Assembly (NCBI GenBank): GCA_963796285.1
Contig: CAWCKW010000006.1
Coordinates: forward strand, 96,001 to 160,000
Length of the DNA stretch: 64,000 nucleotides
Direction of reading: 5' to 3'
Source of the DNA: Nitrospirota bacterium
Lineage (GTDB): Bacteria > Nitrospirota > UBA9217
A program made the position numbers and the translations under genes. Below, piece after piece: positions 37,805-43,206 of this stretch. The notes under the pieces are model-generated. The model was not told the origin of the DNA and searched no databases. It worked only from the letters and a program-made list of their open reading frames with translations. The stretch's first letter is position 1. Every line of letters begins with the position of its first letter.

Positions 37805-37880
37805 TCCCGGATAGCTCAGCTGGTAGAGCGGGTGGCTGTTAACCACCATGCCGCAGGTTCGAGTCCTGCTCCGGGAGCCA
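37805..37880 (+). tRNA. tRNA-Asn(GTT), integration target
   Basis: 76-nt cloverleaf, anticodon GTT. Confidence 0.96.
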
Positions 37881-39476
37881 ATCAAGTCCAAAACTGGGCA
37901 CTCTCCCTCTCATTGGGGATCGGGTGCCCAGTTTTTTTCCTGCAATAGCCGCAGCCAGCGCCACATGACTTCCACGGACACAGACCCTGTTGCCCTCGAC
38001 CTTGATTTCATCCACAAGCAGCCTTAAATACTCTTTGCCGAACGAAGGGGAGGACTTATCCAACAGCTTGCGTTTCAACGACGAGCAGAAGGCATTGACA
38101 TGGCCCGGTTTGATATGATCCAAAGGCAACTCTTGTTCACGCCGCAGACCCGCGATTTCTGTTAATATTTCTTGCCGTCTGGCTTGATGCTTGTGGACTC
38201 GCTCCTGTAAGGTAACATCCAGCGGCAGCAAACCTTTCTCAACAGCCTCATACAGACGATCAGACTGGGTTTTGAGGTTATCCAGTTCTTTTGTTAATGC
38301 TTTCAACTGGTCATTGTGCGAGGAGCCGGATTTCTTCTGAGCATGTAACAATTCTGTCAACATGGTTTTGACTCGCTCAGGTTTAAAGACGCGATCCGCG
38401 ACAGCCTGTAATACAAGACCGTCCAGTTTTTCCATAGGGATATTATTGCTCTGGCAGGTCTTGCTTCCTATCTGGTTGATCCGCGTTGAACACTTGTAAT
38501 AGTGATACTTCCCGCTCTTGCCGGTTGCAAGGGTCATCCTTGCCCCACACTCCCCGCACCGAAGAAGGCCGGTCAGAAGGGTAGGAGAATTCACGATCCG
38601 AGGCGGCACCTTTGCCGGAGAACGGTCAACGCGGCGCTGAGCTGCGAGGTTGAAGGTCTCAATGTCAATTATCGGCTCTACAGCAATCTGCACCCATTCA
38701 GATTGAGGCTTGCGCTTTCTGGTTTTCTTTTCAGTTTTATTAAAAAAGTATTCGCCAACATAGGTTCGATTGGCAATGAGGTCATAAACAAGAGTCTTGT
38801 TCCACTTTCTGCCTCGCATAGTAATGCCCCGGTCATTAAGAAGGGAAGCAACGCCCTTTACTCCGAGCACCCGGCCTTGATGACCGTACAGATACAGCTT
38901 GAAAATATCCTTCACTATGGTTGCTTCTAACGGGTCTATTACAAGTTGTTTCTTATTACCTCTTCTACCTTGCAGCGGAAATTCTTTCGTTCCATAGCCG
39001 TAAGTAGGTTTTGAACCGTTAAAATAACCTTGCCGTGCGTTCTCTTTCATTGCGCGAAGTGTGTGTTTCGAGTTTTCCTTGCTCTGATACTCATCGAACA
39101 AACCGAAAATGCCCCTTGCCATCTCGCCGGCGGAATCATCGCCTGTTTGTTGAGTGATAGAGATTAAGTTGACTCCGTGTTTCTTTAGACGTCGATCATA
39201 AATGGCAAGCTGGACATGATCCCGAAAGAATCTCGAAAGACTATGCACGATTAACGCACTATATGGAGCAGGCTCGGCGCAGGCATCGGAAATCATTTGC
39301 TGAAATACCGTCCTTTTGTCATCCATGGCCGAGGCTCCCGGCTCGATATATTCCAACGCCACACTGTGGCCATGCGCCTTGCACCACTCACGCATTTGAC
39401 GCAGCTGATCAGGAATAGATAAATCTTTCTCAGCCTGTCTACTAGTTGATACTCGTGCATAGAGAGCTACTAACAT
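37839..39476 (-). CDS. Large serine recombinase (integrase); 3' end overlaps tRNA-Asn antisense
   Basis: Catalytic YARVST, recombinase domain, zinc ribbon CGECG..YYKC..C, coiled coil. Confidence 0.93.
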   Translation of the reverse strand: MLVALYARVSTSRQAEKDLSIPDQLRQMREWCKAHGHSVALEYIEPGASAMDDKRTVFQQMISDACAEPAPYSALIVHSLSRFFRDHVQLAIYDRRLKKHGVNLISITQQTGDDSAGEMARGIFGLFDEYQSKENSKHTLRAMKENARQGYFNGSKPTYGYGTKEFPLQGRRGNKKQLVIDPLEATIVKDIFKLYLYGHQGRVLGVKGVASLLNDRGITMRGRKWNKTLVYDLIANRTYVGEYFFNKTEKKTRKRKPQSEWVQIAVEPIIDIETFNLAAQRRVDRSPAKVPPRIVNSPTLLTGLLRCGECGARMTLATGKSGKYHYYKCSTRINQIGSKTCQSNNIPMEKLDGLVLQAVADRVFKPERVKTMLTELLHAQKKSGSSHNDQLKALTKELDNLKTQSDRLYEAVEKGLLPLDVTLQERVHKHQARRQEILTEIAGLRREQELPLDHIKPGHVNAFCSSLKRKLLDKSSPSFGKEYLRLLVDEIKVEGNRVCVRGSHVALAAAIAGKKLGTRSPMRGRVPSFGLDWLPEQDSNLRHGG

Positions 39477-39637
39477 AGTGTTTACTCCTCTTCTTGAGAG
39501 CATTGTATAAGAACATCTTTTATTATATCCGATAAATGTGATTGCAAAAGCCTGACCTCATTTTCAGTTATACGATCATTAGATAACTGGATATCGACTT
39601 CAATTATTATCGGCTCAGGTTTCCTCTTTTCGCTCAA

Positions 39638-39865
39638 TCATGGCGCACCGCCTTCTTTGCTCAATGTCCTGCCCGATCCGTCCCATTCCTGACCACATGT
39701 TACCCGTGTTAACTCTTTTACAAGCCCATCTCTGCCAAATTCGCTTAATACAAGCAAACGAAATGTAGAATATTGACTCGGTGTTAATGGCAATAATTCG
39801 GCATAACGTAGAATATTCTTTAGTCGTGCGCTGACGAGGTGTTCTATTTGCTCTTTAGTTACCAT
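39638..39865 (-). CDS. 75-aa hypothetical protein coupled to rep
   Basis: Start sits within the last codons of rep (ATGGTAA); lies between rep and integrase. Confidence 0.6.
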   Translation of the reverse strand: MVTKEQIEHLVSARLKNILRYAELLPLTPSQYSTFRLLVLSEFGRDGLVKELTRVTCGQEWDGSGRTLSKEGGAP

Positions 39866-40950
39866 TTTCCCAGTTGCATTTCCTTGACACGCCGCTTCAC
39901 TTCCACATCCCAATCAAGGTATTCATGAACCCTACGCAGCTTCAGCCCGAAATGATCCAATGCCGCTTTATATCCAATGACCGGCAGACCGGATTGAATA
40001 CAATAAACCGCACCGACTCGTTTTAAATAGCCGTACATCGCGATGACCATGCGCATCATGCGTTCTTCTAAAATAGCTTCATCGTCGTAAGCATTGCACA
40101 CGCCGAGATGATTCAACATTCCGATTTCTTTCTGTAAGTCTTGCCATAAAGGATGAAGCGGCCAGCGGGATCGGTGGGAATCTCCGTTTGATTGCCTCAG
40201 AGTATCATGTTCATGAGAAAGATAACGCAGCAGGTCGCCATGCTGTCCTTGCAGGTCGTCGAAAGACACTATGCCGAAGCGCTTTAATATTGCCTTCCTA
40301 ATCTGCCATTCAATGCGCCAGACATTTTCCTTTTGTCCCCATAAGTTAAAGAACCAGACCTTGCCGCTCTCTTGCTCGATTTCAGCGACCTTATCATAGA
40401 CGCGAAGCACAATATCACCTTTGCCGAGAGTGAAAGTCTGCACCTTGCCGTTTTCACGGTGCTGGCTGTCCTTCCTAGAACGACTGACAAAACTATCCAA
40501 ATTAAAATCAACAAGAGGCAGATTATAATCAAAGGTGAAATCCACGCGGGAGAGCTTTTCCGATATAATTGGCTCAAAGCCGATAGACCTGGCCCACGAT
40601 AAAAACTTATCGTGCAGGATAAAGGCCGATTGACGCCAAAGCGCTGCGCTCCTAAACGTAACGTAAAAATTAGGCGACATGAATTCGCTGATCTCTATCT
40701 TGAAATCATTGTTTACAATAACGAAGGTATAGCCGGAGGATGTTCCGTAAGGTTGTAACAGAAATTCAGAATCGCCGAGCTTCACAGGCAGAGGATGTTT
40801 CCTTTTCGATTGACGAATTGTCTCTTTTTGCTCAGCAAGCCTTTGGAAATCGAGGCCCGACTGCCCTGCACTCTGAAGGTAATAAGCGCATTGAACGGTA
40901 TCAAGACCATGAAGAATTAATTTGATTTTATCTACAGTCATTTTAATCAC
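39859..40950 (-). CDS. Rep_trans-like rolling-circle replication initiator
   Basis: SRVDFTFD, TFTLGK..LRVYDK..E, WRIEWQIR motifs. Confidence 0.78.
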   Translation of the reverse strand: MIKMTVDKIKLILHGLDTVQCAYYLQSAGQSGLDFQRLAEQKETIRQSKRKHPLPVKLGDSEFLLQPYGTSSGYTFVIVNNDFKIEISEFMSPNFYVTFRSAALWRQSAFILHDKFLSWARSIGFEPIISEKLSRVDFTFDYNLPLVDFNLDSFVSRSRKDSQHRENGKVQTFTLGKGDIVLRVYDKVAEIEQESGKVWFFNLWGQKENVWRIEWQIRKAILKRFGIVSFDDLQGQHGDLLRYLSHEHDTLRQSNGDSHRSRWPLHPLWQDLQKEIGMLNHLGVCNAYDDEAILEERMMRMVIAMYGYLKRVGAVYCIQSGLPVIGYKAALDHFGLKLRRVHEYLDWDVEVKRRVKEMQLGKW

Positions 40951-40985
40951 TAAAGTGAATGCTCATTAACTTCGCAAGCATTTTC

Positions 40986-41291
40986 TTATTTATTCTTCTT
41001 AGTTCGCTTCTTAATCTCCGGTTCGTTTTTCTCTTGACCAAATAAGTCCAGGACTTTATTTGCAGCTTCTTCATTCAAACCAAAAGCCTTCATGATTTTC
41101 GGTCTCATATATCTATGGACTTCTAAAAGGTCCGGGTTATTCTTAAGAATTCGTTTTAACTCCCGGTTATCGCTTGTTGATGCGCATATCATCACCCAAC
41201 GAGCAACCGCAGACATACTAATCTTTCGTGGTAATTCACGAGCCGCAGCATAGCTAGAATCGTCTAAGTATATGTTAGTTCTTACTGCCAT
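40986..41291 (-). CDS. Ribbon-helix-helix-like regulator
   Basis: N-terminal RTNIYLDD...SMSAVARW; GGAGG RBS. Confidence 0.6.
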   Translation of the reverse strand: MAVRTNIYLDDSSYAAARELPRKISMSAVARWVMICASTSDNRELKRILKNNPDLLEVHRYMRPKIMKAFGLNEEAANKVLDLFGQEKNEPEIKKRTKKNK

Positions 41292-42553: not shown

Positions 42554-42554
42554 A

Positions 42555-42613
42555 GACCAACCAGTCGTTCGAGTCCCGCGCTCTACGGCGCGGGGCTCAA
42601 CTCGTCGTTATCT
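42555..42613 (+). other. attC site 1 (59 bp)
   Basis: GACCAAC-N5-GTTCGAGT-CCCGCGC..GCGCGGG-GCTCAAC-N5-GTTATCT. Confidence 0.88.
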
Positions 42614-42640
42614 CCCCAAGTTGAAGGAAGGGGTCACACC

Positions 42641-43099
42641 ATTAATACTGAAACAGCTCAACAGAATAGAGAACTTCGAGGAAATCCATACGACAAGTGG
42701 CTTGTCTGGGGTCCAGTCCTCGCAGGCGCTCTGTTGCCATACACGATATATACTCTATTCAATCCAAAGTTCCTGCTAGATATAGCCAAAACACCAGATG
42801 AGCTTGTGATTATGAGCATCGGCGCGATCATTTCTGATATTCCTTTCTTCGTTGTAGCCTTTTTCGCAAACGGTGACAAGAGTCGTAATTATAATCTGAG
42901 AAGGCGAGTTAGCAATACTGCCATACGATTCCTACCTGTATTCGGAATATATGCCTTTCTGCTTTATGATGTAGCAAGGGCAGCTGCTCTTAGACTGCCA
43001 GGTGCGTCAACGGCACCGATCGCTTTATTAATATTCCTGCCAATTGCCGTGTTGCTCGTATTTGTATTACAGCTGATCACCAAAGCTATTGAAAGATAA
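42641..43099 (+). CDS. Cassette 2: four-TM membrane protein (ATT start at 42641 or TTG at 42734)
   Basis: Open frame after RBS AAGGAAGGGG; stop codon lies inside R'' AGATAAC. Confidence 0.65.
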   Translation: MNTETAQQNRELRGNPYDKWLVWGPVLAGALLPYTIYTLFNPKFLLDIAKTPDELVIMSIGAIISDIPFFVVAFFANGDKSRNYNLRRRVSNTAIRFLPVFGIYAFLLYDVARAAALRLPGASTAPIALLIFLPIAVLLVFVLQLITKAIER

Positions 43100-43151
43100 C
43101 CTGGCGCTCGACTGCGACGCGCAAAGTCGGCGCGTCAGCGCCGCGTTAAAG
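43094..43151 (+). other. attC site 2 (58 bp)
   Basis: AGATAAC-N5-GCTCGACT..GTCAGC-N5-GTTAAAG; R'' exactly complements this cassette's entry core GTTATCT. Confidence 0.85.
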
Positions 43152-43206
43152 TGTGATTATTTCATTCCATTGCCCTGTTTCATCATGTCCGGGGAGCCAA
43201 TTTTAC

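Follow-up and report, generated by a model that had tools for sequence, protein, structure and literature searches.

The window analysed here is a 64,000-nt stretch of a Nitrospirota genome (positions 96,001 to 160,000 of contig CAWCKW010000006.1, assembly GCA_963796285.1), and coordinates given without a contig name refer to it. At a tRNA-Asn gene of this window lies a 5.3-kb integrative element that encodes a large serine integrase and a divergent initiator-like protein (Rep), and whose cargo consists, as judged from sequence, of two integron cassettes. Read from the tRNA gene, the element comprises the integrase gene, two small open reading frames (ORFs), rep and a third small ORF, all on the minus strand, followed by a conserved hairpin, the two cassettes with their attC recombination sites and the left arm of the attachment site attP, all on the plus strand. 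Among the ORFs of 37873-43201 we saw no tyrosine recombinase and no conjugation or capsid gene, as had been stated in the original prediction, which was made from the sequence of this stretch without database searches.

Insertion at the tRNA-Asn gene

The tRNA-Asn (GTT) gene (37805-37880, plus strand) was called by ARAGORN and scores 69.4 bits with the Rfam tRNA model. It is the integration target, and its 3' end forms the left attachment site, attL. The core repeat GGGAGCCAAT occupies 37873-37882 (plus strand) at this end, with the crossover inside the repeat, and an exact second copy of the 10-mer at 43192-43201 (plus strand) marks attR. Taken alone the repeat is insignificant, because the 10-mer occurs at chance level (6 matches with at most one mismatch versus 5.3 expected, a count of 6 being reached by 43 of 100 shuffles). 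A longer imperfect repeat at the element ends matches at 15 of 19 positions, and the original terminator hairpin of the tRNA gene is found 3' of attR as an inverted repeat at 43207-43237.

Independent evidence for the boundaries comes from empty sites. In a genome of the same genus (G001, locus L110) the tRNA-Asn gene is joined directly to the right flank of the window, with the terminator hairpin, and in the alignment the window tRNA-Asn is identical to the tRNA of this empty site up to GGGAGCCA. A three-way alignment shows that the left part of this empty site, attB, is that of attL and its right part that of attR, with GGGAGCCAA common to all three. When public assembled metagenome contigs (no reads) were aligned to 37700-43400, in each of two runs (X1 and X2) one contig was found to pass directly from 37872 to 43192; it skips the 5,319 bases between, and the joint can be placed only to within 10 nt. 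From run X1 also come 14 pieces of this stretch at identities of at least 99%, pieces of the element among them, and this run may represent the sample from which the genome was obtained. Occupied sites exist side by side with empty ones. Because the empty site and the skipping contigs remove everything at once, 37881-43199 is a single discrete insertion at the tRNA-Asn 3' end, cassettes included. The 5.3-kb unit originally proposed at this tRNA gene is thereby borne out independently of the repeat, and the empty attB that had been suggested as a check was found in G001 as well as in both runs.

The integrase gene (37839-39503, minus strand, 554 aa) encodes the three domains of a large serine recombinase, in agreement with its first description: Resolvase (PF00239, E 2.5e-26), Recombinase (PF07508, E 3.6e-17) and Zn_ribbon_recom (PF13408, E 3.9e-17) all score above their Pfam cut-offs. 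Partial matches to CcrB-, CcrC- and XisF-like models each stay below cut-off. The final 14 codons of the gene and its stop are read from the tRNA gene antisense. In the excised circle, the integrase frame would instead run over 43199-43146 on the minus strand and give the C-terminus WLPGHDETGQWNEIITL; its stop would be a TAA complementary to the TTA in the R' box of the second attC site.

The left (P) arm of attP (43146-43191, plus strand) carries an arm motif that adjoins the att core. The P arm (..CCAGTGCCCAG..) and the P' arm (..CTGGGCAC..) are inverted around the core GGGAGCCAA and are conserved in the family of related elements described below. Inverted arms around a core are the typical attP layout of serine integrases.

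Sequences resembling the right end of the element occur elsewhere in the genome. Its last 57 nt (43142-43198, from the R' box of the second attC site to the att core) are 88-91% identical to the start of an intergenic repeat of ~170 nt with three genomic copies, all on another contig of the assembly, C12 (C12:499608-499664, C12:723057-723103 on the minus strand and C12:1289676-1289726 on the minus strand). Past GGGGAGCC these copies continue with ~110 nt that are common to them and unrelated to the element, and one of them sits after a degenerate attC. The repeats may have been left behind by related elements, as scars, or may serve as a secondary target.

The Rep and integrase family

Rep (39859-40950, minus strand, 363 aa) is a putative rolling-circle initiator or MOBT-like relaxase, its predicted fold being that of the Rep_trans/Phage_CRI class. 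No family in Pfam, PHROGs or NCBIfam matches it above threshold. In an alignment of 23 family members, weak similarity to Phage_CRI was obtained for 13 (best E 2.3e-5) and weak similarity to Rep_trans for 10 (best E 4.1e-5), and a precomputed PF05144 (Phage_CRI) annotation is attached to 2 of 120 listed homologues. An AlphaFold (AF2) model was computed from this alignment (predicted local distance difference test 82, predicted template modelling score 0.72). Its best Foldseek matches, 4cij (E 5.7e-11; template modelling scores 0.40/0.52), 4cwe (2.9e-8) and 4cwc (3.9e-8), are all Rep_trans initiators, and the next are TATA-binding proteins. As modelled, Rep has a Rep_trans fold though it lies below the sequence-family threshold, and the fold match together with the weak family-level Pfam signal upholds the original designation of the protein as Rep_trans-like. 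Residues R183, Y185, K187 and E190 are invariant in the 23 sequences and D186 is nearly so; R183 to K187 form an R-x-Y-D-K stretch, the putative catalytic motif of this initiator class.

Homologues of Rep are numerous (1,104 at E<=0.001). We scanned one genome per species, obtained 109 Rep relatives and kept 80 loci. By their record titles, these belong to Nitrospirota, Desulfobacterota, Armatimonadota, NC10, Nitrospinota and Beta-, Gamma-, Alpha- and Zetaproteobacteria; a viral contig collection yielded one relative (L122), compared with the 109 in genomes. An integrase lies beside or after Rep in 73 of the 80 loci, the integrase relatives being 44-84% identical, and the integrase 3' end overlaps a tRNA gene in 46 of these 73 (Asn in 31, Arg in 14 and Glu in 1). 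Elements for which both ends were found mostly measure 4.4-6.7 kb. The family is large, widespread and apparently undescribed.

Upstream of rep, at 41549-41572 (plus strand), lies a hairpin of the form CCCCCC-GTGTTAC-N5-CGGGGG, which is conserved across the family as GTAT...TAG-CCCCCCGTGTTAC-N5-ACGGGGG. If one mismatch is allowed, 71 of 80 loci have it in the 4 kb upstream of Rep, without exception in the same orientation; with at most two mismatches most loci show it 0.3-0.9 kb upstream. The presence of the hairpin confirms part of what had been predicted; its role as the site nicked by Rep, whether a double-strand origin or an origin of transfer (oriT), is presumptive. The arm motif CCAGTGCCCAGATT(CATC) followed by a tRNA-like core was found 0.7-4.9 kb past the hairpin in 49 of 71 loci, and its inverted counterpart CTGGGCAC adjoins the integrase 3' end.

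It had been suggested that the backbone of related loci would be kept and the cargo would vary, some of it with attC sites, and this is what the scan returned. Rep and integrase occur together in 73 of 80 loci, as given above, relatives of the 124-, 289- and 121-aa proteins of the window element in none, and attC cassettes in a minority, in the same position and orientation. Cargo without attC is present in other members, for instance L033 and L074. A scan of metagenomes for near-identical backbones with other cargo returned four distant loci only, in which the broadest of our attC models (R3, described below) gave one marginal match (L129, E 0.062). A relative of 95% identity, P0001, is encoded on a contig of 123 kb.

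Several further loci bear on the integration sites and on the relatives of Rep. At L019, L020, L023, L027 and L053 no tRNA was called at the integrase end, and the right flank past the att core resembles a tRNA T-arm antisense (..GACTCGAAC..). The target in these five loci looks palindromic because the right flank reads in this way, and they may represent an alternative type of attB with better dyad symmetry. In L043 (12500-17540; a record of Azonexus hydrophilus) a second small element stands in tandem at the same tRNA-Asn, with a tyrosine integrase, an HTH_17 protein, a 459-aa distant Rep relative (25% identity) and a cargo gene with HATPase_c and DUF4325. Similar distant Rep copies occur in L065 and L066, and therefore several Rep-plus-integrase families may share these tRNA sites. 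Within the genome of the window, a second, degenerate copy of the hairpin and the 36 nt that follow it, 86% identical and including GTTAGGT, lies at C12:647905-647976 (L120). It has no Rep or integrase nearby, adjoins an ORF that by eye resembles an insertion sequence transposase, and is probably a remnant of a related element.

Cassettes, attC sites and integron remnants

Cassette 1 (41667-42607, plus strand; left edge tentative) contains an ORF of 289 aa (41684-42553) with a hydrophobic N-terminus, signal-peptide-like by eye, and without a match in Pfam, PHROGs or NCBIfam. Its attC site, attC1 (42555-42613, plus strand), has the boxes R'' GACCAAC and R' GTTATCT. Cassette 2 (42608-43145, plus strand) contains an ORF of 121 aa (42734-43099), hydrophobic, membrane-protein-like by eye and without a useful match in Pfam, PHROGs or NCBIfam, whose stop codon lies within the R'' box of attC2 (43094-43151, plus strand; R'' AGATAAC and R' GTTAAAG). 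Both sites show the canonical R''/L''/L'/R' layout with an extrahelical base and fit a structural heuristic with no mismatch. Their bottom strands fold into R-box and L-box helices (single-stranded DNA folding, z -2.0 to -2.8), and the unpaired C on the top strand of the consensus structure corresponds to the extrahelical G on the bottom strand.

In integron cassettes, the start of a cassette (TTRRRY) complements the R'' box of the cassette's own attC, and the R'' and R' boxes of an attC are inverse and 50-150 nt apart, as they are in both sites here. Cassette 2 follows the rule on starts, its start TTATCT complementing its own R'' AGATAAC at 7 of 7 positions, as expected of a circularisable cassette. 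Evidence that does not depend on trained models consists of the boundary rule, the structural heuristic, which is untrained and returned 51 matches in 7.16 Mb, and the likeness to attC sites beside integron integrase genes (intI) that is described next. Taken together these point to two genuine integron cassettes, and the original claim of two attC sites is well founded. The two sites start 539 nt apart and have no intI nearby, as in a cluster of attC sites lacking an integron integrase (CALIN), which is defined by two or more close attC sites without intI in the vicinity. Rfam returned no attC family on the window; besides the tRNA, two sub-gathering matches at chance level (AgrB and ceN63) were obtained.

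An attI-like site had also been proposed, and this label did not stand. The sequence in question, GTTAGGC at 41588-41594, was considered as an attI-like site or cassette junction and rejected, because it lies inside backbone sequence common to the second hairpin copy at C12:647905, with which homology continues to ~41609. Two other approaches were dropped: a dynamic-programming attC scorer, whose sensitivity fell short of that of the simple heuristic when specificity was equal, and the idea of a sigma-70 promoter directed into the cassettes, for which 6 sites were found versus 5.6 in shuffles.

The integron integrase model TIGR02249 has no match on the contig that holds the window, and in particular no decayed intI was detected with it at 41300-41650, where such a remnant had been named as a possible refutation. 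Across the genome it gives 6 matches, all on C12 and none above cut-off. The best is a 5'-truncated gene (C12:1310522-1311094, 203 aa, 225 bits against a cut-off of 265, model positions 123-313). In the locus around it (L001, C12:1310522-1311787), the truncated intI stands beside a two-gene cassette, toxin-antitoxin-like by eye, and an attC; a second locus (L121, C12:424965-425848) has a short intI fragment at C12:425705 with two attC sites. Both attC sites of the element have close counterparts on this contig. For attC1 this is C12:424972-425015, the attC beside the intI fragment (93% identical over 45 nt), and for attC2 a solo attC at C12:86371-86424 (96% over 54 nt), with 82% identity to the attC beside the truncated intI. 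The core of attC1 is moreover a high-copy repeat with unrelated flanks in metagenome runs X2-X4. Searching the genome with a covariance model built from three sites gave 16 attC-like sites, scattered over four contigs. In their alignment, which was fitted to the covariance model, 82.7% of cells are paired, compensatory changes occur in 11 of 19 pairs, and the observed covariation is reached by 0 of 500 shuffles. By these comparisons the element's attC sites belong to the host's own attC families.

For the related elements, attC sites were sought in several ways. A model from the 16 sites of this genome only gave five matches in 4 of the 80 loci (L047, L058 twice, L068 and L071), and with filters off a second site in L071. 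The untrained heuristic gave 27 matches in 2.42 Mb of family loci. Within 3 kb past the hairpin it gave 13 on the cassette strand versus 1 on the other, with about one expected from the background of the window's own genome; the 13 fall in eight loci (L023, L026, L053, L058, L065, L068, L071 and L078). The start of the first cassette complements its own R'' at 10 of 10 positions in L058 and L071, 9 of 10 in L053 and 8 of 10 in L068, and these four first cassettes start 107-240 nt past the hairpin. The slot of L071 is occupied by three cassettes in a row that reach as far as the attP arm. In four elements (that of the window, L028, L068 and L071) some 40-50 nt separate the final R' box from the att core, and an attC-like site just before the arm was seen by eye in L012, L018 and L028. 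The broader model R3 gave 11 matches at E<0.01 in 9 of 81 loci, with all 14 matches at E<=5 on one strand. Its 24 training sites include some from eight of these nine loci, for which it is therefore not independent. We estimate that attC cassettes are present in 7 well-supported loci and up to 12 of 80.

Cassettes of the relatives always lie between hairpin and attP arm and always in one orientation, and in every element examined the attC bottom strand is the strand of Rep's own sense. Their genes include those for a ThsB-like TIR protein (L058) and a Ser/Thr kinase (L018), and 8 of 10 tested have no Pfam family. The first cassette of L058 (581-1523, minus strand; Gallionellaceae) couples the ThsB-like TIR gene (PF08937, E 1.8e-26) with that of a 153-aa protein without a Pfam family, and looks like a compact anti-phage cassette. 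Among the hosts of nine cassette-bearing relatives, five have a full-length intI above the cut-off, one a split gene and three none, and every such intI is located away from the element.

Interpretation, alternatives and neighbouring features

We consider it likely that the window holds a small integrative element of a large family, which receives integron cassettes in a variable slot through IntI acting in trans and which moves by its own integrase and Rep. The serine integrase would recombine attP (arms GTGCCCAG / CTGGGCAC, core GGGAGCCAA) with the tRNA 3' end, and excision would probably need a directionality factor, either one of the small conserved ORFs or a helper-encoded protein. After excision, Rep would nick the hairpin and start rolling-circle replication, strand transfer or both, yielding single-stranded DNA. 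Filamentous-phage initiators nick their own sense strand, and if Rep did likewise, the displaced single strand would be the recombinogenic bottom strand of attC. The cassettes would have been inserted, via attC x attC recombination or a secondary site, by IntI supplied from a chromosomal integron of the host that has since decayed here. Having no transfer genes, the element can pass from cell to cell only with the aid of a helper or by transformation; it may be satellite-like, with helper transfer or packaging, as proposed originally.

Several results weigh against this reading. No intact intI was found in this genome, truncated remnants only, and therefore cassette capture cannot be happening in this host now. 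No attI-type site was demonstrated on the element. The left edge of cassette 1 is ambiguous: its best start, GTTAGTC at 41666-41672, complements R'' at 6 of 7 positions, and a 10-nt boundary scan of this cassette gave no start above 7 of 10. Covariance-model scores for the two attC sites of the window are circular, both being in the training sets, and L018 and L028 were spotted by eye before they were used in training. The window Rep itself has a Phage_CRI match of E 0.022 (14.9 bits against a cut-off of 21.7) and no Rep_trans match in Pfam, and the nick site, the nicked strand and replication by Rep are presumed from sequence. A junction of the attP circle was absent from the contigs of the public runs, though this is no evidence either way because they are assembled contigs only, without reads; terminal overlaps that mark circular contigs were likewise absent from the 14 contigs below 9 kb and from L122. 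Genes for Zot (PF05707), VirB4 and type IV coupling proteins were not found in the 96%-complete assembly, so that no helper was identified, a negative that does not show absence because plasmids may be unbinned. Finally, cassettes were detected in ~7-12 of 80 loci only and are not a universal trait of the family, and among five hosts of relatives in which none were detected, three have an intI. The hosts are rich in integrons, but intI, being equally common in both groups, does not discriminate cassette carriage.

Two alternatives keep an appreciable though lesser probability. In the first, which is compatible with the carriage of cassettes, Rep is mainly a MOBT-like relaxase, the hairpin is its oriT, and the whole is an integrative mobilizable element (IME) moved by a helper. 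Rep_trans proteins do act as relaxases in integrative conjugative elements (ICEs) of the Tn916/ICESt3 type and in streptococcal IMEs, as set out in the available part of PMC7563843, and the combination of an integrase, a Rep_trans-fold protein and a conserved cis hairpin with no transfer genes on the element would suit such a role. However, in that part of the source MOBT relaxases are described in Firmicutes only, whereas the present family occurs in Nitrospirota, Desulfobacterota, Proteobacteria, NC10 and others. The lack of VirB4 and coupling-protein genes in this assembly also speaks against a relaxase, as does the share of the family's weak Pfam signal that falls to Phage_CRI, a filamentous-phage initiator. 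According to the same source, Rep_trans relaxases can also start rolling-circle replication of the excised element.

The second, which we hold possible with similar reserve, treats the cassettes as incidental passengers: a replicon that is often single-stranded would have been hit accidentally at attG-type sites or attC-like hairpins, with no role in spreading cassettes. It would account for the low share of loci with attC, for the ordinary cargo found elsewhere and for the equal frequency of intI in hosts of cassette-free relatives, and IntI-mediated insertion of cassettes outside att sites has been reported (bioRxiv 10.1101/2022.09.11.507474, in part). Against it, cassettes recur in elements of different phyla in one slot and one orientation, with arrays that begin ~100-240 nt past the hairpin and end at a near-constant distance from the core in the four elements named above. 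In any case, cassettes on an excisable element travel along regardless.

We think it improbable that a helper phage packages the element, be it as a phage satellite or as a defective filamentous (inovirus-like) prophage. In favour of this explanation are the weak Phage_CRI similarity, the filing of L122 in a viral contig collection, and the precedent of the phage-inducible chromosomal island-like element (PLE), a satellite that encodes a large serine recombinase, integrates into the Vibrio cholerae repeat (VCR) and uses a directionality factor of its helper phage (PMC6002521, in part). However, the genome has no Zot/pI-type gene (PF05707) and the element no coat-like or packaging gene, as would be looked for in an inovirus. 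A search of PHROGs returned nothing for five of the six ORFs submitted (integrase excluded), and the sixth, 42734-43099, weakly matches a family of unknown function. A single relative in the viral collection, moreover, stands against 109 in genomes.

Very improbable, and already contradicted, is the idea of two adjacent things, an integrase/Rep island and an unrelated cassette remnant, or of hairpins that are element-specific rather than attC: scattered solo attC sites in the genome and a weak third copy of the tRNA-end repeat at 41559-41577 (74% identity) would allow for it, but the empty site and skipping contigs take out all 5,319 bases together, a family-conserved attP arm lies to the right of the cassettes, the attC sites match those beside intI remnants, the cassettes obey the boundary rule, and the repeat match falls within the conserved hairpin. 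For this last reason a nested or tandem structure bounded at 41577 was also rejected.

The likely reading, that of an integrative element loaded with cassettes by IntI in trans, can be placed among known systems. A CALIN is carried here by an IME-like platform that has a serine integrase and Rep, and the whole is assembled from known modules. The element is not a complete integron, with no IntI-like match on its contig and no tyrosine recombinase among its own ORFs. With mobile integrons on transposons, plasmids and SGI1-type islands it shares the carriage of cassettes between genomes on a mobile platform. In contrast to those platforms, which carry the whole integron with intI, attI and the cassette promoter Pc, it carries cassettes only and no intI. 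With plasmids of the pT181 family and filamentous-phage gpII it has in common the initiator fold, a hairpin near rep and an invariant R-x-Y-D-K stretch, the putative catalytic motif, but it is integrated by its own integrase, its Rep lies below Pfam cut-offs, and no single-strand origin or coat genes were identified. PLE is larger, carries phage-defence genes and has its own replication initiator, and no helper phage is known for the window element. As in PLE, a large serine recombinase serves integration and excision, there is a link to attC, and the directionality factor is possibly supplied by a helper; unlike the window element, PLE integrates into an attC-type repeat and carries no cassettes, as far as the available part of PMC6002521 goes.

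CALINs have been described as hitchers that depend on an IntI elsewhere (PMC11389934, in part). In the window, too, two attC-bounded cassettes lie close together without intI, but here they are the cargo of a self-integrating, Rep-encoding element of 5.3 kb, in a fixed slot and orientation that recurs in relatives. The streptococcal IME_oriT group is similar in being small and in combining a site-specific recombinase, a Rep_trans-family protein and a cis nick site (predicted in our case) with no transfer apparatus; according to the available part of PMC7563843, its members belong to Firmicutes, integrate in the oriT of ICEs and depend on helpers. The present family differs in its hosts, which belong to Gram-negative and other phyla, in integrating at tRNA 3' ends with a large serine integrase, in the divergence of its Rep and in carrying integron cassettes. 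The literature, seen mostly as titles and abstracts, yielded no account of an integrative element that has a serine integrase and Rep and carries attC cassettes.

A shuttle function is plausible but unproven. We regard as doubtful the stronger proposal that the family is a dedicated vehicle, moving cassettes between genomes and phyla without an integron platform by presenting attC as single-stranded DNA, being loaded and unloaded by IntI and seeding CALINs. If it were true, a resident IntI could add cassettes to a fixed slot beside the origin and remove them again, and re-integration at a tRNA gene in a new host would seed CALINs and feed chromosomal integrons. Such a route would address two open questions, namely the origin of CALINs and the means by which cassettes of sedentary chromosomal integrons pass from one species to another. 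To our knowledge, the known carriers of cassettes are whole mobile integrons on transposons and plasmids. The carrier offered here is a different one, a tiny self-integrating element that probably makes single-stranded DNA, and with it cassette traffic without intI has a concrete route that can be tested. This carrier occurs in Nitrospirota, Desulfobacterota, NC10 and Beta- and Gammaproteobacteria, and cassettes are met in it repeatedly, in a single slot and orientation. The backbone is notable in itself for its combination of a serine integrase, a highly divergent Rep_trans-fold protein that is unnamed in family libraries, and a near-invariant hairpin.

Three small ORFs complete the backbone, and none of them (51, 91 and 124 aa) has a match in Pfam, PHROGs or NCBIfam. 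The first (39482-39637, minus strand, 51 aa) is a candidate excision factor by its position only, and tblastn relatives were found in 3 of 80 loci only. The second (39638-39913, minus strand; 91 aa from TTG or 75 aa from ATG at 39865) overlaps the 3' end of rep. Its tblastn relatives occur in 37 of 80 loci, always between Rep and integrase, so that the 75-aa ORF pointed out originally is a conserved one; a protein Atlas was uninformative for it. The third, upstream of rep (40986-41360, minus strand; 124 aa, or 101 aa from ATG at 41291), is a putative regulator whose position is taken by unrelated small ORFs in related loci. It had been labelled a ribbon-helix-helix (RHH) protein, a name that could not be confirmed: besides the database negatives just given, the lone lead from the Atlas is to RHH clusters at 0.87.

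Away from the element, the window shows two further features of its tRNA complement. A 102-nt tRNA-like gene of undetermined identity, with the four-base anticodon cgtt according to ARAGORN, lies at 8172-8273 on the minus strand, and four tRNA-Ser genes (TGA, GCT, CGA and GGA) are grouped with one tRNA-Arg gene within 1.9 kb at 27967-29835.

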